A stretch of DNA of 64,000 nucleotides from a virus (IMGVR_UViG_3300042509_002293:32080-96079); one strand, 5' to 3'; shown: positions 15,746 through 40,048, counted from the first letter of the stretch. Made by a program: numbers and translations. Notes: a model not told the origin generated them from the sequence alone.

Positions 15746-15772
15746 GGGGGTTCCGGAAGGTCCGGAACCCCC
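15746..15772. promoter_or_regulatory. Perfect 12-bp inverted repeat in the divergent (switch) intergenic region
   Basis: GGGGGTTCCGGA-AGG-TCCGGAACCCCC. Confidence 0.6.
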
Positions 15773-15811
15773 GGTTTTAGCCCGGAAAGTACGGACAGAC
15801 GGAGGTTTCCC

Positions 15812-16255: not shown

Positions 16256-16275
16256 TCTGGGGTACAATCGGCACG

Positions 16276-16479
16276 GTGTTGCGAATACTGACCACTGTCG
16301 AGGCGGCGGCCGAACTCGGGACCAGTCCGTCGAGCATTTCTCGCGCCGCGAGGAGGGCCGACGTCGGGCTGCGTCGCGAGGACGGTCGCCTCGTCGGCAT
16401 CAGCCGCAGCGACATGGCGAAGATCAGGAAGCTGCTCCGGTACAAGGCCGGCAACCCCAACTTCGGAAAGAAGAAGTGA
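16276..16479 (+). CDS. Small HTH protein
   Basis: ILTTVEAAAELGTSPSSISRAA; TTGCGG-16-TACAAT promoter immediately upstream (possibly leaderless). Confidence 0.65.
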   Translation: MLRILTTVEAAAELGTSPSSISRAARRADVGLRREDGRLVGISRSDMAKIRKLLRYKAGNPNFGKKK

Positions 16480-17345
16480 TGCCGCACACCGTGTACTACA
16501 GCGACGACTTCTGCCGTGCCACCCACGCGTTCGACACGACAAGGAAGTCGAGGTGGGTCGCCGACTCGCTCCGCACTCGTCCGGTGGACGGGGTCTCGCT
16601 GGAGGCACCGGCTCCGGCTGCGGTCGCTGACGTCGAGGCCGTCCACGCCCCGGAGTACGTCGCGGCCATCCGGGACGGCGAGCCCGACGGCGTCGCCAGC
16701 AGCAGCGGGCTGGCATGGTGCGAGTCCATGCTCGGATCGGTTCTGGCAAGCACGGGAGGCATGGTCGCGGCGGTGACGCGGGCCGCCCGGAGCGGCGTCG
16801 CCGGCTCGCTGTCGTCCGGCATGCACCACGCCCGGCGGAGCCACGGTCTCGGATTCTGCACGTTCAATGGGCTCGTCGTCGCCGCGAGGGCAGCCGAGGC
16901 TCTGGGGTACGAGCGGATCCTGATTCTCGACCTCGACGCCCACGGTGGAGGCGGGACGGCTTCTCTTATTTCCGGAAATGTACGGATAAGCCACCTCGAC
17001 CTCGTCGTCGACCCGTTCGACGTTCACGAAGACTCGATCGACCTGTCCCGGAGAAGCCCGCTCGACTACCTGACCGTGCTCTCGGCCTCCCTGGAGGCCC
17101 TCCGCCCGGACTTCGTCATCTACAACGCCGGCATGGACGTCGCCGAGGGGGACTGCGGCCCCGGCGGCTTCGACTCGCGGATCATCGCCGCCCGCGAGGT
17201 GACGGTCTTCGAGTGGGCTCAGCGGATCGGGGTGCCCATCTGCTACGGACTCGCCGGCGGGTACGAGTCGCCGACCCGGTCGCGGGAGTCGCTCGTGGCT
17301 CACCATCGCTCGACCATCAGGGCCGCAGAGCGGATCTGCGGCTGA
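16479..17345 (+). CDS. Histone-deacetylase-family (Zn-dependent) deacetylase
   Basis: SGMHHA, GFCTFN, LDLDAHGGGGT, YNAGMD, LAGGY motifs. Confidence 0.9.
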   Translation: MPHTVYYSDDFCRATHAFDTTRKSRWVADSLRTRPVDGVSLEAPAPAAVADVEAVHAPEYVAAIRDGEPDGVASSSGLAWCESMLGSVLASTGGMVAAVTRAARSGVAGSLSSGMHHARRSHGLGFCTFNGLVVAARAAEALGYERILILDLDAHGGGGTASLISGNVRISHLDLVVDPFDVHEDSIDLSRRSPLDYLTVLSASLEALRPDFVIYNAGMDVAEGDCGPGGFDSRIIAAREVTVFEWAQRIGVPICYGLAGGYESPTRSRESLVAHHRSTIRAAERICG

Positions 17346-19573: not shown

Positions 19574-20872
19574 ATGAAGCTCAACGTCGCAGACTACTCC
19601 CGCCAGACGACCCACGAGGGCGGGCCAGCCAAGCGGATCTCGCCCGAGCAGGAACTCCGTCGGAGCGTCCTCTCGTGCCTCTTGTGGGAGAAGCAGTTCT
19701 ACGAGGACGGCCAGGACATCGCCGATCGCATCGAGAGTCTCTGCGAGAAGGTCGATCCCAGCGTGATCGCGGCCCTCGCTGTCGAGGCCAGGACGGCATT
19801 CCACCTCCGGCATGTTCCGCTCCTCCTGGCGTCGTGCCTCGCCAAGCGGGGCGGAGGACGTCTCGTGGCCGACACGGTCGAGGCCGTGGTCCAGCGTGCA
19901 GACGAGTTGGCCGAGATCCTCGCCGTCTACTGGCGGAACGGCCGGTGCCCGATCTCGAACGGCCTGAAGAAGGGCCTCGCCCTCGCGTTCACGAAGTTCT
20001 CGCCGTACCAACTGGCAAAGTACAACCGAGACGGAGCGATCAAGCTCCGGGACGTCCTGTTCCTCGTCCACGCCAAGCCCAAGGACGCCGATCAGGCGGA
20101 GACCTGGAAGAAGCTCGTCGACGGCACCCTTGAGTCTCCCGATACCTGGGAGGTCTCGCTCTCCGCCGGTGCCGGCAAGCGTGAGACGTTCGAGAGGCTC
20201 ATCCGAGAGGGGAAGCTCGGCTATCTCGCCCTCCTGCGGAACCTCCGCAATATGGCCGAGGCCGGGGTCGACTCCTCGGCGGTCAAGAATGCGATCCTCT
20301 GCCGTGCCGGCGCCGGCCGGGTGCTGCCGTTCCGCTACGTTGCGGCGGCGAGGGCCTGCCCGCAGTACGAGACGACGCTCGACATCGCCCTGCTTGCGGC
20401 CATCTCGGAACTGCCGGCCCTGCCGGGCAAGACGCTCGTGCTCGTCGACATCTCCGGGAGCATGGACTCCGCATTGTCTGGAAAGAGTGACCTGAGGCGG
20501 ATCGACGCGGCGGCCGCCCTGGCGAGCATCATTCCCGGGGACGTGCGGGTCTTCTCGTTCACCGACGCAGTCAAGGAGGTCCCGCCCAGGCGGGGCATGG
20601 CGGGGGTCGACGCGATCCTCTCGTCTCAGCCCCACGGCGGGACGTACCTTGGCCATGCCGTGAAGGCGATGAATGCGATCGAGCACGACCGGCTCGTGGT
20701 CATCACCGACGAGCAGTCGGCGGACTCCGTCCCGGACCCGCTCGCGAAGCATGCCTACATGATCAACGTGGCCTCGCACCGCAACGGTGTCGGCTACGGA
20801 CGCTGGACCCACCTCGACGGATTCTCCGAGAACGTCATCCGCTTCATCGCAGAGAGCGAGGCGGGCCGATGA
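19574..20872 (+). CDS. rsr: Ro60/TROVE-domain RNA-binding protein
   Basis: TROVE motifs (FYE, RADEL, YQLAKY, LRDVLFLVHAKP, TWEV.LS, ALLRNLRN, RVLPFRY) and vWA motifs (VDISGSM, GGT, ITDEQ). Confidence 0.93.
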   Translation: MKLNVADYSRQTTHEGGPAKRISPEQELRRSVLSCLLWEKQFYEDGQDIADRIESLCEKVDPSVIAALAVEARTAFHLRHVPLLLASCLAKRGGGRLVADTVEAVVQRADELAEILAVYWRNGRCPISNGLKKGLALAFTKFSPYQLAKYNRDGAIKLRDVLFLVHAKPKDADQAETWKKLVDGTLESPDTWEVSLSAGAGKRETFERLIREGKLGYLALLRNLRNMAEAGVDSSAVKNAILCRAGAGRVLPFRYVAAARACPQYETTLDIALLAAISELPALPGKTLVLVDISGSMDSALSGKSDLRRIDAAAALASIIPGDVRVFSFTDAVKEVPPRRGMAGVDAILSSQPHGGTYLGHAVKAMNAIEHDRLVVITDEQSADSVPDPLAKHAYMINVASHRNGVGYGRWTHLDGFSENVIRFIAESEAGR

Positions 20873-22260: not shown

Positions 22261-22300
22261 CGGGGCCGGCGGTCTTTCGGGGCTGCCGGCCCCGTTTCTT
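22261..22300 (+). terminator. Rho-independent terminator
   Basis: CGGGGCCGGCGGTC-TTTCG-GGGCTGCCGGCCCCG followed by TTTCTT. Confidence 0.8.
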
Positions 22301-23191: not shown

Positions 23192-23484
23192 AACGCCGCC
23201 TCTCTGTCCAGAAATCCATGAACGCCACCGGCGGCATCGTCGACGGCTGCCCGCCGTGTCGGCGGTGTGGCGGGCAGCTACGGTGTGACCGGAGGGCGGA
23301 CTTCGATCCTCTGAAGCCTGAGTTCAGAGACTGGCACGAGTCCTGGGAGTGCTACGAGTTCGACCACGACGGAAAAACCTTCGAGGCCTTTTTCGTTCGG
23401 TGCGACTCGTGCTCCCGGACGAGCAACTACTGGCAGGAAAAACCGTTGACCAATACACCGATCCAGGAGACAATAGAGACATGA
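23188..23484 (+). CDS. Zn-ribbon-like protein
   Basis: CRRCGG...CDSC; ATGA coupling. Confidence 0.6.
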   Translation: MKRRLSVQKSMNATGGIVDGCPPCRRCGGQLRCDRRADFDPLKPEFRDWHESWECYEFDHDGKTFEAFFVRCDSCSRTSNYWQEKPLTNTPIQETIET

Positions 23485-23753
23485 TTAAGAAACCCAAGTA
23501 CGTCCTCGAACCGTCCACCGAGCGTCGCATCGCGGCCCGGGAGGCGGCCCGGATCCTCGACCTCTCGATGGGGCACCTGCGAAGCTTGGCTCGCAAGGAG
23601 ATTCTCCGATCGTGGAAGATCGGCCCCAGCACCGTGCTGTACAGCCTCGACGAGATCGTGGCCTACGGCAAGGAGAAGGCCGAAGGCCGCCGGAAGGGGA
23701 AGGTCCGAGGCGCCCGCCCGCAGGGGTTCTCCCCGGACGCATCCGGCGAATAG
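23481..23753 (+). CDS. Excisionase-like HTH protein
   Basis: IAAREAARILDLSMGHLRSLARKEIL; AGGAG SD. Confidence 0.75.
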   Translation: MIKKPKYVLEPSTERRIAAREAARILDLSMGHLRSLARKEILRSWKIGPSTVLYSLDEIVAYGKEKAEGRRKGKVRGARPQGFSPDASGE

Positions 23754-23878
23754 GCCTGTTTTTGCGGGCTTTTTGTGACCAGTGTCATAGAGACTTGCCC
23801 CACACTTGCAATGCACCGAGGCCGGTGCTATACTCTTGGGGTCGGACGAAACCACCCGCCAACGAAGGACTGAAACCC

Positions 23879-24985
23879 ATGAACAACGTCGCCGCCGCCC
23901 CCGCCTGGAAGAGCTACTACGTCGGAGCCACCGTCGCCACCCCTGACGGCATCGAGTGGAAGATCATCGAGTGCCAGAAGCGGCCCACGGCCAAGGGCTA
24001 CCAGAGCCGCGTGTTCACGCTGCTCGGTCCTGACGGACGCAAGGTCCGGAAGACCGCCCGTGGCATCACCCTGTTCTCAGCGGGGGTCGAGGTCAGCGAG
24101 GCGAAGCCCCAGGTCGTCGAGTTCGCCCCGGCGGAGCCTGTCGCTCCGGCCCCCGTGGTGGAGCCCGTCCCGGGTCAGGTCCGGCATGCCAACTACGGGG
24201 CCCTCCTACGGGCGGTCGCCGCGAAGTGCAACGTCTGGCTCGTCGGCCCGGCCGGCTCCGGCAAGACCTCGGCCGCCGAGAACGTGGCCAAGGACCTCGG
24301 CCTGCCCTTCTACTCGAAGAGCGTCGGCCCGCAGACCAGCGAGTCGAGCCTCCTGGGCTACCAGGACGCCAACGGACGCACGGTCCGGACGCTCCTCCGC
24401 GAGGCGTTTGAGCACGGCGGCGTGTTTCTCCTGGACGAGGTCGACGCGGCCAACCCGGCCGTCCTCGTCGTGATCAACGCCCTGCTCGCGAACGGCCACT
24501 GCGCGTTCCCGGACGGGGTCGTCGAGAAGCATCCGGACTTCACGCTGATCGCCGGCGCCAACACGATCGGCCAGGGTGCGGACCGCCAGTACGTCGGCCG
24601 GCAGCAGATCGACGCCGCGACGCTCGACCGGTTCGTGAATCTCGTGTGGGACTACGATCCGGCGATCGAGGCCGCCGCCGCCGGCGTCCCGCTCGCCGCC
24701 GTGGCCGACGCCCCCAGGCCTGCGGCCATCGCGTTCGAGGTCGGCGTCACGCCCGCCGAGACCGAGCGGCGGGCCGCCGAGTACGTCCGGTACGTCGTGG
24801 CGGTCCGCAACGCCGTGGCGTCGTTCGGCAAGTCTGTCCGGTTCATCGTCAGCCCTCGGGCCAGCAAGCATGGGGCCGCCCTGGTCCGGGCCGGGTTCTC
24901 GATCGCGGACGCCTGCGAACTGGCGATCTGGAAGGGGCTCGACTCCGACACCCGGGCCAAGCTGGAGGCGGCCGCCGCACGCTAG
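23879..24985 (+). CDS. AAA+ ATPase (MoxR/CobS/CbbQ-like)
   Basis: Walker A GPAGSGKT, Walker B LLDEVD, IAGANT, DAATLDRF, SPRAS. Confidence 0.88.
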   Translation: MNNVAAAPAWKSYYVGATVATPDGIEWKIIECQKRPTAKGYQSRVFTLLGPDGRKVRKTARGITLFSAGVEVSEAKPQVVEFAPAEPVAPAPVVEPVPGQVRHANYGALLRAVAAKCNVWLVGPAGSGKTSAAENVAKDLGLPFYSKSVGPQTSESSLLGYQDANGRTVRTLLREAFEHGGVFLLDEVDAANPAVLVVINALLANGHCAFPDGVVEKHPDFTLIAGANTIGQGADRQYVGRQQIDAATLDRFVNLVWDYDPAIEAAAAGVPLAAVADAPRPAAIAFEVGVTPAETERRAAEYVRYVVAVRNAVASFGKSVRFIVSPRASKHGAALVRAGFSIADACELAIWKGLDSDTRAKLEAAAAR

Positions 24986-25039
24986 TTGCAATGCACCGAG
25001 GCCGGTGGTATACTCACACGACCCCCAGGAGGAATGCCC

Positions 25040-25867
25040 GTGATCCACAAGTTTGAGTCGTTCGAGAAGTTCATCGAGCAGGCCCTGGTCGTCCCGTCCA
25101 GGCAGGACAGTTCGAGCAGCCGGCAGACGCGAGAAGGCAAGGACCCGTGGCACGGGACGAACACCTTCGAGCAGGCTGTCGAGATCGCCCGGAAGGGGTG
25201 GCCGGAAGGGGCCGCCAAGGCCCTGGAGCTACGGGCCGAGGTCGAGTCGGCGGTCCGGGACCTGATCAACGCCCGGTCGAGTTCGTACACGTTCGACCTT
25301 GTCGGCGAGTACGTCGACATCGGCCGGCACCTGTCCGGCGAGCCGGAATGCTTCGGCACCGAGGTGACCGACGGCAGCAGCGTGTCGCGGCCGGTGGTCA
25401 AGATCGTGGCGAACCTCGCCGCCAGCGGCTCGATCAGCCCGAGGAGCCTGTTCGTCCGGGGGGCCGCGATCGTGGCCGCCATCGACATCCTGGAGGCCCT
25501 CGGCCGCCGTGTCGAGGTGTGGGTCGCCCACGGGTCCGCGACGCGTCGGGGCGGCGGCGCCACCCACGAGTCTCACGTCCTGGTCAAGAGTGCCGACCAG
25601 CCCCTCGACGTTGACAGGCTCAGCTTCGCCGTGGCCCACCCGGCCTGCCTGCGGCGGCTGTGTTTCTCTGTGATGGAGCAGCGTGGGCACCTGCCCAACT
25701 CGACCTACCCCCACAGCGTCACGGTCGAGGGCGACGCCATCGTCACCAAGCACTCACTCCGGGGGTCCGACTTCTCGAAGCGGGAACTCCTGGAACTCGT
25801 GGCCGAGCTTTGCGGGCAGGCGGGGGTCGAGATTGACGAGGAAGAGGTGGATGCGGCCTGCCACTAG
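25040..25867 (+). CDS. Putative partner of the AAA ATPase (vWA/CobT-like)
   Basis: DIGRHLSGEPEC, RGAAIVAAIDILEALGRRVEV, HPACLRR; adjacent to the ATPase. Confidence 0.6.
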   Translation: MIHKFESFEKFIEQALVVPSRQDSSSSRQTREGKDPWHGTNTFEQAVEIARKGWPEGAAKALELRAEVESAVRDLINARSSSYTFDLVGEYVDIGRHLSGEPECFGTEVTDGSSVSRPVVKIVANLAASGSISPRSLFVRGAAIVAAIDILEALGRRVEVWVAHGSATRRGGGATHESHVLVKSADQPLDVDRLSFAVAHPACLRRLCFSVMEQRGHLPNSTYPHSVTVEGDAIVTKHSLRGSDFSKRELLELVAELCGQAGVEIDEEEVDAACH

Positions 25868-25918
25868 ACAATGCACCGAGCCCGGCGTATACTTGGGAAG
25901 TCACGAGGAGACATCGAC

Positions 25919-26134
25919 ATGAAAACGGTTCGCCCAATCTCGTTCTTCCCGCCGTCGTCCGGCAAGGGCAAGTGGCATGCAGCCGCAGCGTGCAGCACCC
26001 TGTCGGCGTGCGGCTCGGGGGCGACGGTCAACTCGCTCGGGTTTCAGCGGATTCAGGTCGAGGGTGGAGTCGAGGCGAAGTGGGTTCATCCGATTTGTTG
26101 CCGTCGGTGTCTGAAGCAAGCCTGTGGGGAGTAA
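25919..26134 (+). CDS. Small Zn-binding protein
   Basis: KWH...SACG...CCRRC; own promoter copy and SD. Confidence 0.6.
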   Translation: MKTVRPISFFPPSSGKGKWHAAAACSTLSACGSGATVNSLGFQRIQVEGGVEAKWVHPICCRRCLKQACGE

Positions 26135-26138
26135 CGCG

Positions 26139-26654
26139 ATGCACTACAAATTCCTGCGAGTCACGAGCAACGAGGGCCGCTGCGAGAAGTGCGGCACCGT
26201 CTGCCCGAAGCGGCGTGTCGAGGTCCTGCCGGTCGACGCCGATGGCAATGCCTGCGGTGAAGTGCAACTCTGGGGCGTCAACTGCGCGGCCCAGGCCCGC
26301 TACGGCTCGAAGGCCCGCAAGTACCAGGAGCGGGTCGTGGTCGAGGCCGACACGGCCGAGCGGGAGCGGGCCTACCAGGAGCGGCAGAAGCTGGCTCGGG
26401 TCGCGGTCGTCGGCCAGAGCTACGACTTCGGCGGGCCGGCCACGGTCGTCTTCTGCCGTGACGGGCTCGACAGCGAGGGCCTCGCCAACCGGCTCTACCG
26501 CCGGACCGGCCGCAGCCTCGTCGGCAGCTACTTCGCCCGTGGCCCCCGGGGAGAGGTCGTGCGGGTCGACGGCAGCGATGCCGCCGACGTGGCGTTCTTC
26601 GCGGAGCGGGGGTACGTTCAGGTCTCGAACCCGGTCGAGGAGGTGCTCCACTGA
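26139..26654 (+). CDS. Zn-finger protein
   Basis: CEKCG...WGVNCA. Confidence 0.7.
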   Translation: MHYKFLRVTSNEGRCEKCGTVCPKRRVEVLPVDADGNACGEVQLWGVNCAAQARYGSKARKYQERVVVEADTAERERAYQERQKLARVAVVGQSYDFGGPATVVFCRDGLDSEGLANRLYRRTGRSLVGSYFARGPRGEVVRVDGSDAADVAFFAERGYVQVSNPVEEVLH

Positions 26655-26845
26655 GCGACCTGCGCCACGGCGACAAAGTGAAGGTCCTGGTCGACGGCCA
26701 GTGGGTCGAGGCGACGCTCACCCACCCGTCCCTACAGCTTCCCAGGGGCATGGGGGAGGCGTGGCACTTCACGCTCGATCCCGAGTGTCCGGCCGAGCCC
26801 GGCCGAGACTGGGCCCCGGCAAAAGACATCAAAAAGGCCGACTAA
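26651..26845 (+). CDS. Small protein with a possible CTG start (not in ORF track)
   Basis: CTGA overlap with upstream stop, GGAGG 7 nt before; LSDLRHGDKVKVLVDGQWVEATL...KKAD*. Confidence 0.5.
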   Translation: MSDLRHGDKVKVLVDGQWVEATLTHPSLQLPRGMGEAWHFTLDPECPAEPGRDWAPAKDIKKAD

Positions 26846-26906
26846 AGCCCGGGGTTGCAATGCACCGATAACGGTGGTATACTTGGGCCACCCCAGGAGA
26901 AAAGCC

Positions 26907-27866
26907 ATGACCGACCTCACCAAGCTTTCGCCGTCCGAAGTCGACACGATCTACCTGGAGCGGCTTGCGGCCCTCCAGCGGGCATGGAGGGAGGTCGAGT
27001 ACGCCTCCCTCGCCGTCCTGCGTGAGTCTGGCCGAGGCATCACCGTCGAGGTCGCGAACCGCAAGGGCTACCCGGTCCACGAGACCGTCTACGTCCACCC
27101 GTCGTTCGGGCAGACGCTCCAGGCGTGGTATCGGACCTACAAACTCGACGACGTCCGCGTCCACGTCCTGACCGTCGAGCGGTGCCTCGCCGAGGGGCTC
27201 GCCCCCGCCGCCGCCGCAAAGCTGGCCCAGGCCGAGGCCGCCTGCCGCGACGCCCAGGCGGCCTGCCACGAGGTCGAGACGGAGTACGATCGCCGCCCCT
27301 GGAGCCGCTACTGGCTCGTCACGTCAAGCGACGGGCACATCCACCGGTCGACGTGCTGCTCGACCTGCAACAAGGGCCTCAACCGCACCGGGTTCGCCCT
27401 GACGCCGTTTCTGAGCGGCAAGGCCGACTCCGATGCCGTGGCGGACCTGGGCCCGGCCCTGTGCTCGGTCTGCTTCCCTGAGGCCCCTGTCGAGTCGAAG
27501 GAGCAGGCCCGCATCCCGGCCCGGCTCGCCCTGGCCCTCGCCGAGGAGGGCGTCGAGGCCTTCCAGAAGGCCCGCCAGGAGGCCGCCGCCAAGCAGGCCG
27601 CCCGGTGCCCCGGCTCGGGTCAGCAGGGCCTCCCAGGCAGCCACAGGGCCTTCCACAAGTGCCCGGTCTGTGGCGAGTCTCAGCGGGCCACCCCGGGCGG
27701 CAAGTTCCGGCCCCACAAGCCGGCCCGGTTCAACGTCGAGAACGCCGACTACAAGGCCTGGAACGGCTCGGCCTGGGGCCCGAAGACGAAGGCCGCGATC
27801 TACGGGTCGCTCGAAGAGGCCGAGGCGGTGGCGGCCCAGGTCGGCGGCACGGCGAGGAGGAAGTGA
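26907..27866 (+). CDS. Hypothetical Cys/His-rich protein
   Basis: WSRYWLVTSSDGHIHRSTCCSTC, LCSVCFP, CPGSG, CPVCG; own promoter. Confidence 0.75.
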   Translation: MTDLTKLSPSEVDTIYLERLAALQRAWREVEYASLAVLRESGRGITVEVANRKGYPVHETVYVHPSFGQTLQAWYRTYKLDDVRVHVLTVERCLAEGLAPAAAAKLAQAEAACRDAQAACHEVETEYDRRPWSRYWLVTSSDGHIHRSTCCSTCNKGLNRTGFALTPFLSGKADSDAVADLGPALCSVCFPEAPVESKEQARIPARLALALAEEGVEAFQKARQEAAAKQAARCPGSGQQGLPGSHRAFHKCPVCGESQRATPGGKFRPHKPARFNVENADYKAWNGSAWGPKTKAAIYGSLEEAEAVAAQVGGTARRK

Positions 27867-27868
27867 GG

Positions 27869-28066
27869 ATGAACAAAATCACCTGGGATGACTGCCGCAA
27901 GGGCGACGAACTATCGGCCAGCCTGGACGGACGATTCACGATCCGCTTCCGCCTAGCTGCCGATGGCAAGCCTGTCCGGCTGAGGATGAATGGCGAGTAC
28001 ATGGGGTCGTTCAGCACGATCGCGGCGGCCAAGAGACACGCCTCAAGACTGGCGAAGGTGAAGTGA
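27869..28066 (+). CDS. Hypothetical protein
   Basis: 65 aa, FSTIAAAKRHA. Confidence 0.55.
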   Translation: MNKITWDDCRKGDELSASLDGRFTIRFRLAADGKPVRLRMNGEYMGSFSTIAAAKRHASRLAKVK

Positions 28067-28311
28067 TGGAACTCGAAGAACCTCTCGATCCGAAGGAAGC
28101 CGCCGCCGCCATCCGAGGCATCGTGACGAACTGGCGGACCTGCACCCAGGCCGCCGGGCTCGCCAGGAAGGCCGGGAGGGGCCAGGACGCCGTCGAGCCC
28201 CTGGCGACCGCCGTGGCCGCGATCATCGAGGCGGCGGCGTGGCTGTCCCAGGGCGACGGCGAGGACCGGCTCACCCTGGCCCGAGCCGTGGCGGAGAGCC
28301 TTGTGTCATAG
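28066..28311 (+). CDS. Hypothetical protein ending LVS* at a cassette junction
   Basis: Stop lies in GTGTCATAG. Confidence 0.6.
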   Translation: MELEEPLDPKEAAAAIRGIVTNWRTCTQAAGLARKAGRGQDAVEPLATAVAAIIEAAAWLSQGDGEDRLTLARAVAESLVS

Positions 28312-28398
28312 GCCGAAAACGGCCCCCTTGCAATGCACCGACATCGGTGCTATACTTGGGGCAGACGGGACGAGACACCACTAACCAGGAGACGACCA

Positions 28399-29133
28399 GT
28401 GAACACCGCCACCAGCTACACCGCCGCCCAGGGGTTCGCCGCTCTCGCCGCCATCAAGTCGGCCAAGGCCAAGTACGACGCCATCGCTTCGCGAGACGCG
28501 GTCGGCGGGTTCCGCCACTGCCCCGACGCGAAGGTCGCTGCCGAGTACCACTCGGCTGGCCAGAAGCTGTTCGAGGTCGCCGACTACTTCTTCGCGACAC
28601 TCACCGGCTTCAAGACGCTGAACGAGTGCCTCGACGCCCAGGGGCACGGCTACCGCCCGACGTTTCGCGAGGAAGGCGGCAAGGACGCCGAGGTCGTGTT
28701 TCTCGCCGAGGTCTACGACTACCTCGCCGAGACTCGCGGATTGCCGCTTCGGGCCTACCGGCCCGAGCAGGCTGTCCCGGCCAAGCTGACCCTCGCCTCG
28801 ATCAAGGCGAAGCTTCGAGACCTTCGCGAGGAAGCGCACCGCGAGACTCGGTCGATCGACGCTAAGTATTTTCGATCGAGCGGCCACGAGGTTCGCCTCG
28901 GCGGCGGCCCGGACGGCTATTACGAGTACGGCGGCGCCTGGGACGGGACGCTCAAGGACCTGAAGGACCACGCCGAGCGGTGCCGCAGCAAGGGAGGGGA
29001 CACCGTCGACATCGGGGGGCAATGGCTCTGCGGAAACGACCTCAACGACACGTTCGACCCCACCGACTGCGAGTGGTTCGTCAGCCTGACCGTCGACGAG
29101 ATCCTGGGGATCGGCAGGAAGGCCGTGTCATAG
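28399..29133 (+). CDS. Hypothetical cassette protein ending AVS*
   Basis: GTG start within the repeat, AGGAG SD. Confidence 0.75.
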   Translation: MNTATSYTAAQGFAALAAIKSAKAKYDAIASRDAVGGFRHCPDAKVAAEYHSAGQKLFEVADYFFATLTGFKTLNECLDAQGHGYRPTFREEGGKDAEVVFLAEVYDYLAETRGLPLRAYRPEQAVPAKLTLASIKAKLRDLREEAHRETRSIDAKYFRSSGHEVRLGGGPDGYYEYGGAWDGTLKDLKDHAERCRSKGGDTVDIGGQWLCGNDLNDTFDPTDCEWFVSLTVDEILGIGRKAVS

Positions 29134-29208
29134 CCCCTTGCAATGCACCGAGACCGGTGCTATACTTGGGGCAGACGGGACGAGACACCACTAACCAGGA
29201 GACGACCA

Positions 29209-29478
29209 GTGAACGCCACAAACGCCTTCCGCGACCAAGTCAATCAGCGAATCACGCTCGTCGTCCGCATTGCCAAAGACGAAAGCGGCCGCCCGAGGGC
29301 GCACACGTTCAACGAAGCCCGATATGCGATTCTTGAAGGCCAGGACAGAGTCAAGTTTAGCGCTCGCATCCCGATGTTCGGGCTGTCTGAATTCCGGGAG
29401 GTTTCCGCTCGCGTCCACCACGTCGGATTCGACGGCACTGTCTACCTCAAGAATGTTCGCCTGCGAAAGTCCCGCTGA
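29209..29478 (+). CDS. Hypothetical cassette protein
   Basis: GTG start within the repeat. Confidence 0.65.
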   Translation: MNATNAFRDQVNQRITLVVRIAKDESGRPRAHTFNEARYAILEGQDRVKFSARIPMFGLSEFREVSARVHHVGFDGTVYLKNVRLRKSR

Positions 29479-29509
29479 TTGTCCGGACACGCCAACCAGG
29501 AGCCCGCTC

Positions 29510-29812
29510 GTGACCACCTTCAAAACCACCATCCGCTGCGGAGACACGCTCCACGTCCTCGTGGCGGGCACGGCCCAGGAACTGGCCTCCCTGGCTTCCA
29601 GGACGGCCTCGAAGCTCCTGAGGGCCAACGGCGACGCCGTCCAGGCCCAGGACGGCTCGTCGACCTGGATCGTCGACGAGGAGGTCCACCCGGCGGTCTG
29701 GCACCAGGACGGCAACCGGGTCCGGGCGGTCCGGGTCCAGTACCACCGGGACACGGCCGGGAAGGTCTCGAAACAGGCCCTCCGGAACGTGTGGATTTCG
29801 GCCGTGTCATAG
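29510..29812 (+). CDS. Hypothetical cassette protein ending AVS*
   Basis: AGGAG SD, GTG. Confidence 0.65.
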   Translation: MTTFKTTIRCGDTLHVLVAGTAQELASLASRTASKLLRANGDAVQAQDGSSTWIVDEEVHPAVWHQDGNRVRAVRVQYHRDTAGKVSKQALRNVWISAVS

Positions 29813-29888
29813 CCCCCTTGCAATGCACCGAGGTCGGTGCTATACTTGGGGCAGACGGGACGAGAAACCACCAACCGGGAGACGGCCA

Positions 29889-30581
29889 GTGAATATCCAC
29901 TTCGACATCAACGCGACCAGCCAGACCGAGTGGTACGACATCCGGTGCGACAAACTGCCCGGCCAGGAACTTGGCTACATCTACCTCTGCCCCGGCTACG
30001 GCGGCAGCTACTGCTACACCATCAAGACGCAGTCGGCATACAAGCGGCATCGCGGCGCCCTCCGCAGCCGCCTGTTCAAGACCCTCGACGAGGCAAAGCA
30101 GGCCGCGAAAGCCACCGTCGCCCGTCGGCTGAAGCAGGAGCGGGACGCGGAGCCCGTCAAGCACGGCTGCGGCCACTACTACAAGGGCGGCCCGAGGTGG
30201 TACTACGTCTACGTCGGGAGCAAGGGAGAGGCCCTCTGCTACCCGCAGCCGGCGGCCTCGAAGAAGGACGCCCTGGCGAAGCTCCAGACCCTGCCGCTCT
30301 GGGTCAAGCACCCGGTGGACGTCGTCGAAGGCGTAGTCCGCTGGAAGTCGAACGGCAGCGTGCCGCCGGCTGACTGCCGGGAGAAGCTCCGGGCCGAGGG
30401 GGTCCGATTCGACGAGGCCAAGTCTGCGGCCGCCGACAAGGCCGACTTGGAGGCTCTGCTCGCCGAGTGCCGCAGCCGCCCCCGGGACGACAGCCCCGAG
30501 GCCCAGTTCGAGCGACGGGCCGCGTTCGGGCCTGGGCAGACGATCGTCGACGTCCTCGGCGGTCATCGGTACGAGACCTGA
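29889..30581 (+). CDS. Hypothetical cassette protein
   Basis: GTG in the repeat; C-terminal FERRAAFGPGQTIVDVLGG. Confidence 0.7.
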   Translation: MNIHFDINATSQTEWYDIRCDKLPGQELGYIYLCPGYGGSYCYTIKTQSAYKRHRGALRSRLFKTLDEAKQAAKATVARRLKQERDAEPVKHGCGHYYKGGPRWYYVYVGSKGEALCYPQPAASKKDALAKLQTLPLWVKHPVDVVEGVVRWKSNGSVPPADCREKLRAEGVRFDEAKSAAADKADLEALLAECRSRPRDDSPEAQFERRAAFGPGQTIVDVLGGHRYET

Positions 30582-30657
30582 GGAGCCCCCTTGCAATGCA
30601 CCGGCCTCGGTGATATACTGCCCCCAGTCGCCCACCACTCACGAAAGGACCTGACCC

Positions 30658-31521
30658 ATGAGCAACGCCCGCACCGACGTCCATGCCCCGGCCGCCGCTG
30701 GCTTCGACCCCGAGGCTTACGCCTGCTACGGCTGCTTCGACAACGGCGAGCCGTTCTCGGCCCGCGAGCGGCATGAGGCCGTGAAGTCCCTCCGGGATCG
30801 CGGATTCAAGTGCGGCCACGGCTCCAGCGGTCAGTGCGGCCACTGCGGTGCCCATATCCGCTACACCGCCCTGCTCGCCCGCGAGGACGTGAAGGAGTTC
30901 ATCTTCGTCGGCGAGGACTGCCTGGGGAACCGGTTCTCCGGCATCACCGCCGGGCAGTTCCAGGAGCTTCGCCGGCGGGCCGCGCTCAATCGGGAGCGGG
31001 CCGGCAAGGAAGAGCGGATCGAGCGGCTCCAGGCCGAGCACGCCTGCCTCAAGCGGCTCGTCGAGGACGGCAGCCACGGCAGCGAGTTCCTGTCCGACGT
31101 CCGATCCAAGTTCCTCGCGAACGGTCGCCTGAGCGACGCCCAGGTCGCCGCCGTTGGCCGGGCGTTCGAGGGCATCGACCGTCGCGCCAAGTGGGACGCC
31201 GAGCGTCGCGAGCGGGCCGCCGCCCTGGTGGCCGCCGGGGTCCGGGCCCCGCAGGGGCGGGTCGAGGTGGTCGGCCAGATCGTCTCGGCCAAGTCTCAGC
31301 TTAACGCCGTCGGCGAGCCCTGCGTGAAGATCGTGATCCGCACCGACGCCGGCTGGTCGGCCTGGGTCACGCTCCCGTCGGCCCTCGACGACGGCAGCGA
31401 CGTGAAGGGGCGACGGATCAAGCTGTCCGCGACCCTGACGCCGTCGGACAAGGACGCCACGTTCGCGTTCGGGAAGAGGCCGACGAAGGCGGCTTTTCTC
31501 GACGCGGCGGCCACTGCCTGA
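30658..31521 (+). CDS. Zn-finger plus OB-like hypothetical protein
   Basis: CGHCGAHIRY..VGEDC, FLSD..LSDAQVAA, GRVEVVGQIVS..FGKRPTKA. Confidence 0.75.
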   Translation: MSNARTDVHAPAAAGFDPEAYACYGCFDNGEPFSARERHEAVKSLRDRGFKCGHGSSGQCGHCGAHIRYTALLAREDVKEFIFVGEDCLGNRFSGITAGQFQELRRRAALNRERAGKEERIERLQAEHACLKRLVEDGSHGSEFLSDVRSKFLANGRLSDAQVAAVGRAFEGIDRRAKWDAERRERAAALVAAGVRAPQGRVEVVGQIVSAKSQLNAVGEPCVKIVIRTDAGWSAWVTLPSALDDGSDVKGRRIKLSATLTPSDKDATFAFGKRPTKAAFLDAAATA

Positions 31522-31563
31522 TTGTCTGGATACGTCACCCATCAAGAACAGGAGACACGACTC

Positions 31564-31977
31564 ATGCTGATTCGCAATGACCAGGACAAGGCCCAGGCCA
31601 AGCTGCTCGACGCCATCAACTGGAAGGTGGTCGAGGCCCATCGGGCCGAGATCGCAGCCAAGGACAAACTCGCCGAGAAGGTCGCCCTGTGTGCCGCCAG
31701 CGGCGTCCAGGCGGCCGGCGAGGCGGTGAGACTCGCCCGCGTCGCGAAGAACTGGCAGTGGGTCCTCAAGTGTGCGGGCAAGGCCTGTGCGGACGGCAGC
31801 AACGACGTGTCCGGCGCCGTGGCCCAGTGCGTCGCCAGCATCCGCCGGTCGATCGAGTTGGCCGCCGAGACCGGGCCCTCGACGTGCCCGTTCCACAACG
31901 CCGTCGACTTTGCGGAGGCCCGGGGCGACGTCGAGACGCTCCGCCAGATCGAGGCCCTGCCCGGGGCCGTGTCATAG
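31564..31977 (+). CDS. Hypothetical cassette protein ending AVS*
   Basis: AGGAG SD. Confidence 0.65.
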   Translation: MLIRNDQDKAQAKLLDAINWKVVEAHRAEIAAKDKLAEKVALCAASGVQAAGEAVRLARVAKNWQWVLKCAGKACADGSNDVSGAVAQCVASIRRSIELAAETGPSTCPFHNAVDFAEARGDVETLRQIEALPGAVS

Positions 31978-32051
31978 GGACTTGCAAACCACCGGTATCG
32001 GTGGTATAATTGGGCCAGTTCGAGAGACATCACACACGAAAGGGAACGCCA

Positions 32052-32477
32052 GTGTACAACTACCTGAAGCTCCGAAGCTGCTCGAATCTCGCCTGCGAGA
32101 CCTTCCAACTCGTCGAGCCCGCCAGCGAGACCCCGGCGGCGAGACTGTCGCGGGTGCAGTCCATTGCTCGGCAGTGGGGCCTGGGCAATGGCAGCGACGC
32201 CGTCGAGGTCTCCGTCGAGTCCTTCAACGGCGACTGCGTCGTGTCCAGGCACGCCGTGGCGATCGACCGCCCCGAGCCGGCGGCCGTCGAGGTCGACGAA
32301 GACGAGCAGCCCGTCACGATCACCATCACGAAGGCCCAGGCCCGGGTCGTCCTGGCAGGCCTCTCCAGGCGGTACATCGAGCTTGAGGCTCTCGGAGGCT
32401 GGGAGGCCGAGGCCCTCGGCAAGGAGGCCAAGGCCACCTACCAGTCGATCGACAAGCAGGTCTACGGCGACGCCTGA
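32052..32477 (+). CDS. Hypothetical cassette protein
   Basis: GTG after a promoter copy. Confidence 0.65.
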   Translation: MYNYLKLRSCSNLACETFQLVEPASETPAARLSRVQSIARQWGLGNGSDAVEVSVESFNGDCVVSRHAVAIDRPEPAAVEVDEDEQPVTITITKAQARVVLAGLSRRYIELEALGGWEAEALGKEAKATYQSIDKQVYGDA

Positions 32478-32525
32478 GTTTCCGGATGCGATTGCCCCTC
32501 ACCCCCCAATCAGGAGACGACGACG

Positions 32526-33065
32526 ATGCGACACAAGAAGACACGCAGGCCGAGCCAGGCGCAGTTGGCCGTGATCGGCAAGATCAACGCGGAGTGCGAG
32601 CGGCTCGGAGCCAAGGGCTGCGAGCGGCCGGACGGGATCGCGGACGCGACGTGGTGGAAGTGCTACGAACTGGGCTACATCGAGACCGTCGACCGGGACG
32701 GCAACACGCCGCTCGTGGGCGTCGGCTCGCACGGCCGTGGTTGGGTGCCGCAGTGCCCGAAGCCGGTGGCGGCCGTAATCAAGCTGCCGCCCAAGTTCTA
32801 CCAGGACCACTCGGAGCGAGACTTGCCGACACCGGAGGACGTCGGCAATGCCAAGAGTTACGTCCTGGTCCGGGCCGACGACCCCGCCCTGCCTGAGCTT
32901 CTCAACGACGCCGAGTTCTACGCCGATCCCTGGGGGCCCGACGCCGAGTGGCTCGGCGGGCTCAAGGCCTCAGCCAGGGCGACGATCCGGGCCATCCGGG
33001 ACGTCACCGGCTGGGACGACGCAAGTGATACGGTCAAGCGGCTGCGGAAGCCGCAAAAGGCCTGA
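32526..33065 (+). CDS. Hypothetical protein
   Basis: AGGAG SD, 179 aa. Confidence 0.7.
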   Translation: MRHKKTRRPSQAQLAVIGKINAECERLGAKGCERPDGIADATWWKCYELGYIETVDRDGNTPLVGVGSHGRGWVPQCPKPVAAVIKLPPKFYQDHSERDLPTPEDVGNAKSYVLVRADDPALPELLNDAEFYADPWGPDAEWLGGLKASARATIRAIRDVTGWDDASDTVKRLRKPQKA

Positions 33066-33144
33066 TTTCAGACCCCTTGCAAACCACCGGCCTCGGTGCT
33101 ATACTTGGGGGCAGTTCGAGAGACACCAGCAAAGGAGACGACCC

Positions 33145-33762
33145 GTGAGCAACACCAACTACATCCCGACGCCCAAGTCCGTCGAGCTTCACCTCGGCAG
33201 CAACCCCGAGTTCACCAGGAAGTACGGCGCCAAGGTCAAGGCCGCCGGCGGCCGGTACACCGAGTGCCGTGGCCACAGCAACACCCGCTTCGTCGACCTG
33301 CCCTGGACCGACGAGAGCCGCGATCTCGCCAACAAGCTCATCGCGGAATTCGGCCGGCTGAACAACCGGACGGTCGTCGTCCTGCGGCCAGACCGCACCT
33401 TTCGCGGCAAGCACGTCCACGCCCCGGTGGTCGTCCACTACGTCAGCCAGACCGACGCCAACCCGTGCGGCATCGTGCAGGAGAAATACGAGGCAGCGTT
33501 CCTCAAGGCCTTCCCCGAGGCCGCGTTCCCGGAGCCTGAGGTCGTGAAGCCCCCGAAGCCGCTCGCGGCCGACCTGCATCTGAACAGCCCCGCCCAGTTC
33601 TGGGCGGTCCTGGATGCCCTCCAGCAGTACATCGACAACGCCAACGACGCCGAGCACCTGATCGACGACGCCCAGATCGACGAGTTCAAGGCCAAGCTGC
33701 GGGCTGCCGAGCAGTTCCGCGACCAACTCGACGCCGTCCTGGCGTCGCTGGCCGAGGCCTGA
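33145..33762 (+). CDS. Hypothetical cassette protein
   Basis: AAGGAG SD, GTG. Confidence 0.7.
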   Translation: MSNTNYIPTPKSVELHLGSNPEFTRKYGAKVKAAGGRYTECRGHSNTRFVDLPWTDESRDLANKLIAEFGRLNNRTVVVLRPDRTFRGKHVHAPVVVHYVSQTDANPCGIVQEKYEAAFLKAFPEAAFPEPEVVKPPKPLAADLHLNSPAQFWAVLDALQQYIDNANDAEHLIDDAQIDEFKAKLRAAEQFRDQLDAVLASLAEA

Positions 33763-33895
33763 TATTGTCCGGACACGCCAACCCGAGGAAGACACCCTTC
33801 AACCTGACCCCCACAGCCCGCGACATCCTGAAGTACGCCCAAGCAGCCACCCACGTCCAGCGACAGTCGAAACTCGAAGTGAAGGAGACGGCCAA

Positions 33896-34231
33896 GTGAA
33901 CAACCCCGACGAAGTCCGCGACTGGGCATCCATCATGTTTGACCGCATCGACGGCGGCAGCAGCGTGGCCCCGTACCTAGCGGACGTAGCAATCGAATCG
34001 TCGCCGCCGGCCTGGGGGAACGCCGCCGCCTGGGAGGCGCACCTCGCCCGCAGAGACTTGTGGCTCCTGGCTCACGCCAAGTGGAGAGTCGACGAGGAGG
34101 ACGTCGCCGTCGAAGTCTCGCTCCACGGACGCGGCGTCCGCGTCCGTGACTCAAGCGGTGGCCTGGACGTGCTTTGCTTCGATTTCCGTGAGTTCGATCG
34201 AGCCCTCAACGAATTTCTCAGCGGGGAATAG
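33896..34231 (+). CDS. Hypothetical protein
   Basis: AAGGAG SD, GTG. Confidence 0.6.
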   Translation: MNNPDEVRDWASIMFDRIDGGSSVAPYLADVAIESSPPAWGNAAAWEAHLARRDLWLLAHAKWRVDEEDVAVEVSLHGRGVRVRDSSGGLDVLCFDFREFDRALNEFLSGE

Positions 34232-34236
34232 CGACA

Positions 34237-34497
34237 GTGACCACCTACACAACAACACCCGCGAGGTTCTCGCGGGCCGACCAGATCACGCCGGGCAACA
34301 TCGTCCGCCTGGGCGGGGAACTGTGCAAAGTCATCACGCCGAGAATCCTTGAGTGCTGCCGAACCGGTCGATGGTTCGTCGACGCCCAGGCGTTTCGGGG
34401 CGGCCAGGACGCCGAGCCCGTCATGGTCGAGTACGTCGGACCGCAGTGGGACCCGGCGGTTCGAGACTTGGTCGAGTCCTACAGGAGGGGCGAATGA
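34237..34497 (+). CDS. Hypothetical protein
   Basis: 86 aa packed ORF. Confidence 0.6.
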   Translation: MTTYTTTPARFSRADQITPGNIVRLGGELCKVITPRILECCRTGRWFVDAQAFRGGQDAEPVMVEYVGPQWDPAVRDLVESYRRGE

Positions 34498-34622
34498 GCA
34501 CCCAGAAAATCATCCACGCCCTGATCCTGGTCAGGCTTGGGCAGGAGCTAGGGACGGACACCCCCCTGGCCCGAGCCGTGGCCCGGCTCATCGAGGAGGC
34601 CCTAAAACTTGCCGTGTCATAG
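34494..34622 (+). CDS. 42-aa peptide ending AVS*
   Basis: AGGAGG SD, ATGA coupling; possibly truncated by the junction. Confidence 0.5.
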   Translation: MSTQKIIHALILVRLGQELGTDTPLARAVARLIEEALKLAVS

Positions 34623-34697
34623 CCCCCTTGCAAAGCACCGGCCTCGGTGTATAATGGGGCAGTGGAGCAACGAACCACAAACCCGGAGACGAAACCC

Positions 34698-35087
34698 ATG
34701 TCCGCTTTCGTGTGCAGCCAGAACCACATCGCCGCCATCGCCAGCTACGCCGTCGCCAAGAAGGTTTGGCTCGGCAACGCCTCGGCCAAGGACTCCGACT
34801 TCAAGAGCATCTACGAGACGCTGGCTCGGGCCAACGTCGTGAGCGTGTGCCACCGCTACTCCGACGACAAGCCTGAGAACTACCGTGACGTGCTCCGGTC
34901 GCCCAAGCTGTCGAGCGTCCAGCACTCGGCCCTCCAGATCGTCAAGCTGTGCGACTGCCTCGACTACCAGTCGTGCGAGACCGAAGACTGGCGAGACTCG
35001 GACGCCTGCAAGCTTCTGAGCCGGATCCGGGACGCGGCGATCAACGCCCTGCCCGGGTACGACGACGTGAAGTGGGCTATCGCTTGA
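34698..35087 (+). CDS. Hypothetical cassette protein
   Basis: MSAFVCS..HI..N..SV..RY...CLDYQSCE..DW..LPGYD..W. Confidence 0.75.
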   Translation: MSAFVCSQNHIAAIASYAVAKKVWLGNASAKDSDFKSIYETLARANVVSVCHRYSDDKPENYRDVLRSPKLSSVQHSALQIVKLCDCLDYQSCETEDWRDSDACKLLSRIRDAAINALPGYDDVKWAIA

Positions 35088-38746: not shown

Positions 38747-39128
38747 GATTGTTTTTTCGAGGCGGCGTGGCCGGGCCAACTTTGGGCGACAGGCACACGG
38801 AGACATCCTTGTCTCGCGGTGTGTGCGGGCGGGCTCCCAGGTGGGGCTGGCCGTTCGCATCCACAAGTCCATCCTGGAGAAGCTGTCGTGGCTGGTCGGG
38901 GATCACGTTGTGCTCGAAGTCAAAGGCAACGAATGGAAGCTCCGGCGAGTCTCCGGCAAGGATGAGGGCGGCATCATGGTGTCTCCGCTGAATCGCAACT
39001 CCGGCCACGGGGTCGCACGGTTCGCCGCGTCCAAGCAGAGCCTGGACGGGCTGTTCTCTGGCGAGAAGTCGTTCGAGGCATGGCTCGCCACGGGCGAGGG
39101 CCTTGAGGCGACCTTCGTCCGGGGCTGA
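38739..39128 (+). CDS. Hypothetical protein (possible AbrB-like fold)
   Basis: VRIHKSILEKLSWLVGDHVVL. Confidence 0.55.
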   Translation: MAEIVFSRRRGRANFGRQAHGDILVSRCVRAGSQVGLAVRIHKSILEKLSWLVGDHVVLEVKGNEWKLRRVSGKDEGGIMVSPLNRNSGHGVARFAASKQSLDGLFSGEKSFEAWLATGEGLEATFVRG

Positions 39129-39208
39129 TGAGAGCCGCCCTCGCGATAGGCGCGGCAGCCGCTTCGACGCGGCGGGGCGGAATGGTTTCCACAACGAGGA
39201 GCAGAACA

Positions 39209-40048
39209 ATGGCGACGAGTAGTCTGGATACGCCGAACGTCGAACTGGTCTACGACATGGCCAACGACGTCTATCACGCCCGAAAGGAATTCGTCTCCCG
39301 GTCCCAGGCTCACCGCTATCGAGGTGTGCTCGGAGGCCGGGCCCAGCGGTACGCGGAGGTCGCGCGGAAGAGTTTGTTCGCCGGCAACTCGTCGACGACG
39401 TTCGGGACGATCGTGGACACGGCCTTCGAGGCCGAGGTTCGCGGGATCGACTGGAGAAGCAGGTGTGCCGTTGCTCCCCCGAGCGTGCTGGCCGCCGACG
39501 GCAGCCGCCGTGGAAAGGCGTTCCAGTCCTGGAAGGCATCGCTCGACCCGGCCGCGATCGAGTGCTCCGAGACCGACTTCGGCAAGGTCGCCGACATGAT
39601 CGCAAGTCTTCGCGAGCACAGGGGAGCCAACGCACTCATGGAGGCCTGCACCCACTCGCAGCTTTCCGTGTTCTGGACGAACTCGTCCGGCCACAAGCTG
39701 AAGGCCCGCGCCGACGGCGTGACCCCGGAACTCTGGTTCGACCTGAAGACGACAAGCTCGGAGTGGCGGGACCTGAGGTACAGCTTCCGGAGGTTCGGCT
39801 ACGACTGGCAACACTCGTGGTACACGGACGCGGCCCTGGCTGCCGGGTGGCCGCCCTTCGAGTTCAAGTTCATCGTCGTGCAGACGTTCGCGCCTTTTGA
39901 CGTGAAGGTCGTGAAGCTCACGCCGGATGCGGTCGAGCGGGCACGCATCGAGATCGACGAGACGCTCTTCGAGATGCGTCGTCGTGCCGAGACTGGCGAA
40001 TACGTCGCCGAGTCGTACCACGAGGAAGAGGTCCTGGATCTTGGTTGA
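39209..40048 (+). CDS. RecE/ExoVIII-like PD-(D/E)xK exonuclease (DUF3799-like)
   Basis: YHA..VSRS, FGT, KARAD, DLKTT, YDWQHSWY. Confidence 0.82.
   Translation: MATSSLDTPNVELVYDMANDVYHARKEFVSRSQAHRYRGVLGGRAQRYAEVARKSLFAGNSSTTFGTIVDTAFEAEVRGIDWRSRCAVAPPSVLAADGSRRGKAFQSWKASLDPAAIECSETDFGKVADMIASLREHRGANALMEACTHSQLSVFWTNSSGHKLKARADGVTPELWFDLKTTSSEWRDLRYSFRRFGYDWQHSWYTDAALAAGWPPFEFKFIVVQTFAPFDVKVVKLTPDAVERARIEIDETLFEMRRRAETGEYVAESYHEEEVLDLG

Follow-up and report, generated by a model that had tools for sequence, protein, structure and literature searches.

Predicted promoter-operator modules head exchangeable small-gene cassettes in the hyperplastic array of an uncultured GC-rich phage

Why should a phage genome place nearly the same promoter-like sequence ahead of 11 successive groups of small, mostly orphan genes? 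The question is raised by an array within a 64,000-nucleotide stretch of viral DNA (IMGVR_UViG_3300042509_002293:32080-96079; hereafter, the window), which comprises bases 32080-96079 of a 96,079-bp IMG/VR virus record and whose positions are used as coordinates throughout. The record represents an uncultured phage genome with a CheckV completeness of 98% and 64% G+C, and nearly all of its genes lie on the plus strand. The array, in which 11 promoter copies head approximately 25 small genes with mostly unassigned functions, is located between recombinase and helix-turn-helix (HTH) genes and an RNA module on one flank and replication genes on the other. In our reading, each repeat is a putative sigma-70-type promoter whose spacer holds an operator for a protein, rather than an RNA hairpin or a target of a recombinase, and we consider it moderately probable that the repeats are early promoters for the host polymerase, carried in portable modules whose patches of homology provide one route of cassette exchange.

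Nine copies match the core TTGCAANNCACCGNNNNCGGTGNTATANT perfectly, all on the plus strand (−35 positions in Table 1); there were no matches in 100 shuffled sequences, the number of perfect copies expected by chance is 0, and no further match was found outside the array in the whole 96,079-bp record. The remaining two copies are degenerate: the one at 25865 (TAGACA-ATG-CACCGAGCCCGGCG-TATACT) has a mutated right arm, CGGCG, and the one at 34628 (TTGCAA-AG-CACCGGCCTCGGTG-TATAAT) has a spacer of 16 nt. This inventory reproduces all 11 positions listed in a previous reading of the window that was based on the sequence only. The copies are spaced by 680-1551 bp and, according to a self-trained codon-model gene caller, each is followed by 1 to 5 genes, a range slightly wider than the 1 to 4 proposed earlier; that the genes are unrelated to each other holds, with no paralogs among the array genes detected by blastp.

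The repeated unit exceeds the 29-bp core. Most copies carry CCCC 5' of the −35 hexamer and TGGGG 3' of the −10 hexamer, and the array leaders finish with ACCAGGAGAC and the start codon, with GGAGAC as the ribosome-binding site. Copies 5 and 6 are the same from the −35 hexamer through GTGAAC, the 4-nt centre excepted, which bears out an earlier remark that they match for about 75 bp. Just upstream of six copies, and nowhere else on the plus strand of the window, sits GTGTCATAG. Five unrelated genes take their final codons and stop from this sequence; before copy 1 it is non-coding. Because this stop-donor contains the rare serine codon TCA (5.9% of serine codons), and because TAG terminates 64% of the genes directly preceding a promoter copy versus 17% of other genes, we consider GTGTCATAG to be a nucleotide-level part of the module. 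The conserved module thus spans approximately 100 bp and consists of the GTGTCATAG stop-donor, the core, the leader, the ribosome-binding site, and the start codon. A 12th family member, the near-consensus promoter P0, is located upstream of the array, behind a strong terminator with a 15-bp stem. It reads TTGACA-ATG-CTGCG-GAGT-CGGAG-TATATT, in the same frame as the array promoters but with the left arm broken; the same broken arm, CTGCG, is found in two relatives described below (G001 and G002). P0 heads a four-gene operon, the last gene of which encodes the HTH protein F48.

The geometry of the repeats was examined in 42 copies from six related sequences. The spacer between the hexamers is 17 nt long in 39 of the 42 and is filled by the palindrome (G)CACCG-N4-CGGTG(C), 14-16 bp in length. 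Both arms are perfect in 37 copies, one arm is defective in 5, and a compensatory change was seen in none. By contrast to the arms, which are 98.7% identical between orthologous copies, the 4-nt centre is effectively random, with 24 variants among the 42 copies. The possibility that the centres serve as position-specific addresses was rejected, since distant orthologs share 43% of the centre bases versus 39% for non-orthologous copies. The palindrome occupies two registers relative to the hexamers. In form A (26 copies; TTGCAA-NN-palindrome-N-TATACT), the −35 hexamer matches TTGACA at 3-4 of 6 positions and the −10 hexamer is extended by TGn, whereas in form B (12 copies; TTGACA-NNN-palindrome-TATACT) the −35 hexamer matches at 5-6 of 6 positions and the TG is missing. 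Such compensated −35 and extended −10 geometries are as predicted by selection for sigma-70-type promoter function, and fixed arms combined with a free centre, a lack of covariation, and two registers are as predicted for the operator of a dimeric protein. Conserved inverted repeats are also carried by the early promoters of phiC31. Promoter-like sites in the region number 15 versus 1.1 expected, and the palindromes found in two relatives are all array-promoter palindromes (10 in G001 and 7 in G003). The two extra CACCG-N4-CGGTG sites of the present genome, one at 60442 and another upstream of the window, lie within genes, away from any promoter context, and lack conservation; they were dismissed as chance occurrences.

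To place the array in an evolutionary context, we relied on relatives recovered from IMG/VR by a pattern scan, namely, G001 (93.9 kb), G002 (45 kb), and G003 (37 kb), supplemented with one fragment found by protein search and three short related fragments from a metagenome scan. Each of the three relatives has 8-11 copies by a relaxed regular-expression scan, to which the G002 copy at 11874 (L020) was added by eye. The latter, preceding the homolog of the 26907 gene, has lost one base from the right arm (CACCGACGTCGTG) and resembles a decaying operator within a promoter that is otherwise intact. Two matches returned by a pattern scan of a genome collection were unrelated and discarded as chance. 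A megablast search with the array in 50,697 phage records produced no match, and tblastn with two proteins yielded only distant matches, in Gordonia, Mycobacterium, and Microbacterium phages. The CACCG motif is missing from more distant relatives in which the DUF932 gene is shared, and some of these relatives have repeated promoters of their own.

The flanks of the array are collinear with the relatives at 65-80% nucleotide identity, whereas the array itself is mosaic. Homologs in G001 are found for 11 of the 21 array genes as opposed to 64 of the 75 genes in the remaining shared genome (Fisher p = 0.003), and 52% of the array genes are common to a relative, compared with 79-94% elsewhere. The array region is hyperplastic, and comparison of G001, G002, and G003 revealed the gain, loss, and reordering of cassettes that had been anticipated from the sequence: gene order and content differ between the relatives, and some of the breakpoints fall in the repeat. 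Whole-genome comparisons revealed only four tracts with at least 89% identity, and all four end in promoter modules (Table 1). The most telling of these corresponds to positions 12879-13683 of G002 at 92% identity and extends from three bases before one −35 hexamer to the end of the next −10 hexamer (29815-30619). Its neighbors are the 29510 and 30658 genes here and homologs of the 26907 and 28399 genes in G002, and the cassette has moved as an exact promoter-to-promoter unit. Promoter-bounded differences also include a two-cassette block (23879-25867) that is absent from G001 and three extra cassettes preceding the homolog of the 33145 gene in G001. Furthermore, the promoter of a gene can be of form A in one genome while that of its ortholog in another genome is of form B, and unrelated genes within one genome have leaders that are 91-100% identical (e.g., 28399/29209/29889 here and F71/F166 in G003). 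These form swaps and identical modules on unrelated genes therefore point to exchange or conversion within the modules.

We infer from these patterns that the repeats are active promoters read early in infection by the host RNA polymerase with a sigma-70-type factor, and that a dimeric, probably phage-encoded DNA-binding protein would bind the operator and switch all 11 short operons together. The portable module of approximately 100 bp would consist of an optional GTGTCATAG stop, CCCC, the −35 hexamer, the operator, the −10 hexamer, a G-rich discriminator, the leader, GGAGAC, and the start codon, and would head mostly orphan genes. The near-identity of the core across all copies could make it a patch of homology, at which general recombination, whether of two phages or of two copies within a single genome, would insert, delete, or move whole promoter-to-promoter cassettes, with the product always retaining a working promoter. 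Repeat-mediated exchange would be one route only; promoter-less boundaries, many of which carry TGA-TTGTCCGGATAC, and microhomology events may contribute as much.

The closest known system is that of the promoter-early stem-loop (PeSL) cassettes of T4-type myoviruses (Arbiol et al. 2010, PMC2839356; Comeau et al. 2014, PMC4122927). The PeSL element, approximately 100 bp in length, comprises an upstream stop codon, a −35 hexamer, a stem-loop in the spacer, a −10 hexamer, a Shine-Dalgarno sequence, and a start codon (PMC2839356), and the analogy drawn in the sequence-only reading fits this anatomy point by point. Both elements are composites of approximately 100 bp that run from stop codon to start codon, with sigma-70-like −35 and −10 hexamers and an inverted repeat located mostly in the spacer. 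In both systems, a near-consensus sigma-70-type promoter is repeated many times (here, 11 predicted copies and P0), the elements cluster where orphan genes make up a hyperplastic region, and relatives differ by element-bounded indels or replacements alongside events that do not involve the element, the latter being accepted as also occurring in PeSL phages (PMC4122927). PeSL cassettes are further characterised by mini-circles that arise from recombination of adjacent elements. New relative to PeSL are the operator-like inverted repeat, which is one invariant sequence with a free centre, whereas PeSL stem-loops are variable and GC-rich; the coexistence of two registers of the same promoter; and the setting in a 64% GC, integrase-encoding phage genome unrelated to T4. 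In addition, the array element is without an AT-rich upstream region, and PeSL stem-loops have been shown to terminate transcription, whereas the terminator scan and the comparison of arms gave no sign of such a function in the array palindrome.

A series of observations weighs against a special part of the repeats in the exchange. In the closest pair, G001 and G002 (87-97% identity), we counted 18 homology breakpoints, of which 8 are in promoter modules (at core edges, the GTGYCATAG edge, or the start codon), 8 are at promoter-less gene boundaries, and 2 are inside genes. By hand count, 8 of the 10 promoter-bearing boundaries are broken in this pair versus 11 of the 15 others; therefore, promoter-bearing boundaries are not enriched, and an adjacency test for breakpoint enrichment at promoter boundaries showed a modest or absent effect. 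BLAST alignments continue through any shared core, so that the true crossover cannot be placed from an alignment that stops at a core edge. Leaders mostly move with their downstream gene (mean identity of 0.78 for orthologs versus 0.62), single-gene indels also occur at boundaries without a promoter, and one promoter-plus-gene indel (the promoter and F75) has the 7-nt repeat GGCGGCC on either side, a microhomology that is the signature of illegitimate deletion. The comparisons are also limited to four usable genomes. The region is mosaic at single-gene resolution and the promoter modules are one junction class among several, so that the exchange at repeats proposed earlier is upheld insofar as some breakpoints lie in the repeat but not in the sense that the repeats are the sole or preferred breakpoints. 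The boundary counts, the single-gene indels, the microhomology, and the movement of leaders with their genes speak for an alternative in which the repeats are conserved regulatory signals only, without a special part as crossover sites, and the mosaicism is the product of selection acting on illegitimate or microhomology events at gene boundaries of any kind. We nevertheless regard that explanation as rather doubtful, considering that every tract of at least 89% identity ends in promoter modules, that the 29815-30619 cassette is core-bounded on both sides and the multi-cassette indels are promoter-bounded, and that form A/B swaps and identical promoter-leader modules on unrelated genes imply within-module exchange.

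Other explanations concern the palindrome. It could be the operator of a lysogeny (immunity) repressor that silences every cassette promoter in the prophage, akin to the stoperators of Cluster A mycobacteriophages (PMC9283540, PMC6550527), where one short site is found at many early units of an integrase-encoding phage and a single protein could control all units. The invariant arms and free centre, the small HTH genes alongside a tyrosine recombinase gene in this genome, and the multi-site repressors known in temperate actinophages (PMC9283540, PMC6550527) all speak for such a role, which we consider unlikely but deserving of serious attention. The recombinase/HTH intergenic region, P0, and the other consensus promoters, at 19039 and 35786, all lack the palindrome, although an immunity operator would be expected in some of these places; this absence argues against a general immunity operator, and no CI-like repressor was recognised among the genes at 14350-17345. 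Stoperators, besides, are 13 bp long and asymmetric, lie at gene junctions, and block elongation, whereas the array palindrome is symmetric, located in the spacer, and confined to the 11-kb array; the second junction motif considered below appears to fit the stoperator description better. A PeSL-like stem-loop in RNA or DNA that terminates or attenuates read-through from upstream cassettes is improbable. In PeSL elements, the stem-loop most commonly lies between the −35 and −10 hexamers, as the palindrome does here, and it terminates transcription (PMC2839356); the palindrome is also predicted to form a 6-bp hairpin. However, its stem reaches only 5-6 bp and lacks a U tract, none of the 11 copies passes a terminator scan, the fold z-scores (−0.8 to −2.2) are not significant, and the arms are invariant, with single-arm mutations that break pairing and are not compensated.

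That the palindromes are sites of the phage tyrosine recombinase, forming an integron-like site-specific cassette system, is highly improbable. The genome does encode such a recombinase, some cassettes are repeat-bounded on both sides, and, as in integrons, small, unrelated, exchangeable cassettes stand in tandem, separated by a repeated site. However, integron cassettes are promoter-less and read from one Pc promoter, whereas every copy in the array is a complete promoter with which its cassette starts, and no common Pc promoter is present. The integron integrase IntI acts at attI and the structured attC, whereas the array repeat is a 14-bp palindrome with arms of only 5-6 bp, a variable centre, and no attC-like structure. 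Strand exchange needs matching overlap regions, and the variable 4-nt centre is therefore incompatible with site-specific strand exchange between copies. No IntI-type integrase is adjacent to the array: the recombinase gene is 8.5 kb distant and on the opposite strand, and with the XerA/integron-integrase model its product reaches only 43 bits, where the cut-off is 220 (cut-offs 220-335). On these grounds, the label "integron-like" that had been attached to the array was abandoned.

If the palindrome is a protein operator, as we favour, the best positional candidate for its binder is F48, a small winged-HTH protein with a basic tail encoded directly upstream of copy 1. The F48 gene adjoins a promoter copy on its downstream side in all 5 sequences that reach it. 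Profile searches matched F48 to HTH_17 (E = 1e-3) and to the excisionase-regulator family phrog_66 (E = 1.5e-4), and a search of the PDB by sequence found no match. The AlphaFold model (pLDDT 75) has a beta-helix-helix-beta-beta-helix topology, and the best-matching folds are BldC, Pukovnik Xis, RdfS, and GlnR (target-normalised TM-scores of 0.55-0.83, with E-values of only 0.05-0.13), suggesting a MerR/BldC/Xis-like winged-HTH fold. MerR promoters have over-long spacers of 19-20 nt, which are distorted by the activator, whereas the array spacer has the optimal length of 17 nt, and F48 is without the long coiled-coil dimerisation helix. With the spacer already optimal, binding should therefore repress, unlike MerR activation. 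Three points count against the assignment: the HTH_17 match is below the Pfam cut-off, the fold relatives BldC and Xis bind direct repeats and not palindromes, and there are other HTH genes in the genome, including two small ones beside the recombinase gene. Among viral contigs, a search with F48 retrieved only G001 and G002; homologs are also encoded on contigs of 65.7, 52.7, and 25.9 kb, which were left out of the genome comparisons. In G003 (7855-10865; L023) and in L027, a block homologous to the P0 operon and including F48 is located inside the array, before the last promoter and not the first; this relocation is a large rearrangement, and both of its ends abut promoter copies.

A second junction motif, TTGT[C/A][C/T]GGA[T/C]AC, often in the form (C)TGA-TTGTCCGGATAC, is found at many boundaries without a promoter. 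The window contains 15 instances of the motif, each on the plus strand, versus approximately 1 expected, and it is also present in G001, G002, and G003. In about half of the cases, the motif is positioned directly 3' of a stop codon, 20-45 nt ahead of the next start codon. Asymmetric and co-oriented with transcription, it has TGTC...ATA in common with GTGTCATAG and is spread out along the window. The (C)TGA-TTGTCCGGATAC sequence and its leader move with the downstream gene into different contexts. The motif might serve in a stoperator-like manner, mark a site of processing, or be an alternative promoter element. A bolder and only tentative reading is that two portable junction classes, the promoter-operator with the GTGTCATAG stop and the promoter-less TGA-TTGTCCGGATAC, function as universal linkers wired to F48. 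If so, nearly any gene could be swapped by general recombination and would arrive wired to F48, a small MerR/BldC-like regulator encoded last in the operator-defective P0 operon, and the array would be a sequence-defined example, in a lineage unrelated to T4, of the linkers postulated by the modular theory of phage evolution.

Table 1. Positions of array elements, high-identity tracts, junction motifs, and neighboring genes in the window
Feature	Position	Strand	−35 position	Remarks
Terminator hairpin and promoter P0	22261..22334	+		terminator 22261-22294; P0 22306-22334
F48 gene	23481..23753	+		90 aa
GTGTCATAG and copy 1	23782..23834	+	23806	heads g1, 23879-24985
Copy 2	24986..25014	+	24986	heads g2, 25034-25867
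Copy 3, form B, degenerate	25865..25893	+	25865	heads 25910-26134, 26139-26654, and 26678-26845
Copy 4	26855..26883	+	26855	heads 26907-27866, 27869-28066, and 28066-28311
GTGTCATAG (stop of upstream gene), hairpin GGCCG-AAAA-CGGCC, and copy 5	28303..28356	+	28328	heads 28399-29133
GTGTCATAG and copy 6	29125..29166	+	29138	heads 29209-29478 and 29510-29812, genes in this genome only
GTGTCATAG, copy 7, gene 29889-30581 (230 aa), and copy 8	29804..30619	+	29818 (copy 7)
Copy 8 region	30591..31977	+	30591	heads 30658-31521 and 31564-31977, with the second junction motif between them at 31522
GTGTCATAG and copy 9	31969..32010	+	31982	heads 32052-32477 and 32526-33065
Copy 10	33077..33105	+	33077	heads 33145-33762 and four small ORFs (open reading frames) to 34622; a tract 94% identical to G001 stops here
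GTGTCATAG and copy 11 (16-nt spacer)	34614..34655	+	34628	heads 34698-35087 and conserved downstream genes
Tracts of at least 89% identity to G001	28052-28406; 32778-33110
Tracts of at least 89% identity to G002	29815-30619; 32778-33156
Second junction motif	29479..29490	+		directly 3' of a stop codon; other sites include 31522, 33765, 35093, 35833, 36617, 39220, 40895, 43884, 47669, 50495, and 56557
dATP/dGTP diphosphohydrolase N-domain gene	13831-14328
Xer-like tyrosine recombinase gene	14350-15255	minus		8.5 kb upstream of the array; the only tyrosine recombinase of the genome
95-aa ORF	within 14350-17345	minus		beside the Xer-like recombinase gene, facing the small HTH genes
Small HTH genes	15812-16255; 16276-16479			beside the recombinase gene
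Histone-deacetylase-domain gene	16476-17345
TROVE (Ro60-like) and vWA gene	19574-20872			Pfam match; promoter-like site at 19039
PDDEXK-like (DUF3799) gene	39128-40048			family match

Functional annotation of the cassette genes was sparse. The g1 gene encodes a CobS/MoxR-like AAA ATPase and g2 a DUF7192 protein, three further cassette genes, including those at 26907 and 30658, have matches to PHROGs without an assigned function, and for the other cassette genes no family, Atlas, or structure lead was obtained from Pfam, PHROGs, NCBIfam, and the ESM Atlas. Scans of the array for Rfam families and tRNAs were negative. A role of the cassettes in host takeover or anti-defence is a guess from their position. 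Downstream of the array are genes for an SNF2 helicase, the PDDEXK-like DUF3799 protein, a primase-polymerase, and a UvrD helicase; judging from its family, the DUF3799 protein is a possible recombination nuclease. On the other side, the region at 14350-17345, with the recombinase and small HTH genes, may be a lysogeny switch.

Repeated regulatory sequences of other kinds were noticed in sequences related to the DUF932 gene neighborhood. L036 (8257, 10989, 11335, 16791, 18757, and 19514) and L037 (8412, 9925, 11736, 16240, and 18323), contigs of 145-149 kb from distant phages with only the DUF932 gene in common, have their own repeated promoter, TTGACAATGGGGCAGCATTGTGGTATGAT, in which an ACAATG-N6-CATTGT inverted repeat overlaps the −35 hexamer and the spacer, that is, the same design with another palindrome. 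L038 (7423-11079) and L040 (3486-10864), low-GC relatives of this neighborhood, contain five copies each of a long GC-rich hairpin within TTGACA...TGTCAA arms near A/T runs; these repeats may be PeSL-like promoter-terminators. Elsewhere, runs of small genes share an identical block of ribosome-binding site and start codon every 130-700 bp (AGGTGTGACATG in L029, 3196-4221, and GGAGGTGAGTGATG in L031, 8055-9576).

The value of the array as a model of cassette exchange is tempered by the fact that the repeats are not the only breakpoints. With this proviso, the PeSL idea of repeated regulatory cassettes that also serve for crossover, developed for T4-type myoviruses, can be carried over to a phage lineage that is GC-rich, encodes an integrase, and is unrelated to them. 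The two registers of the palindrome amount to a natural experiment, in which −35 strength is traded against an extended −10 hexamer at a constant spacer of 17 nt, and the fixed arms with their free centre offer a testable regulator-site pair. Finally, the array is a place to seek fast-turnover accessory genes, which may include genes for host takeover or counter-defence.

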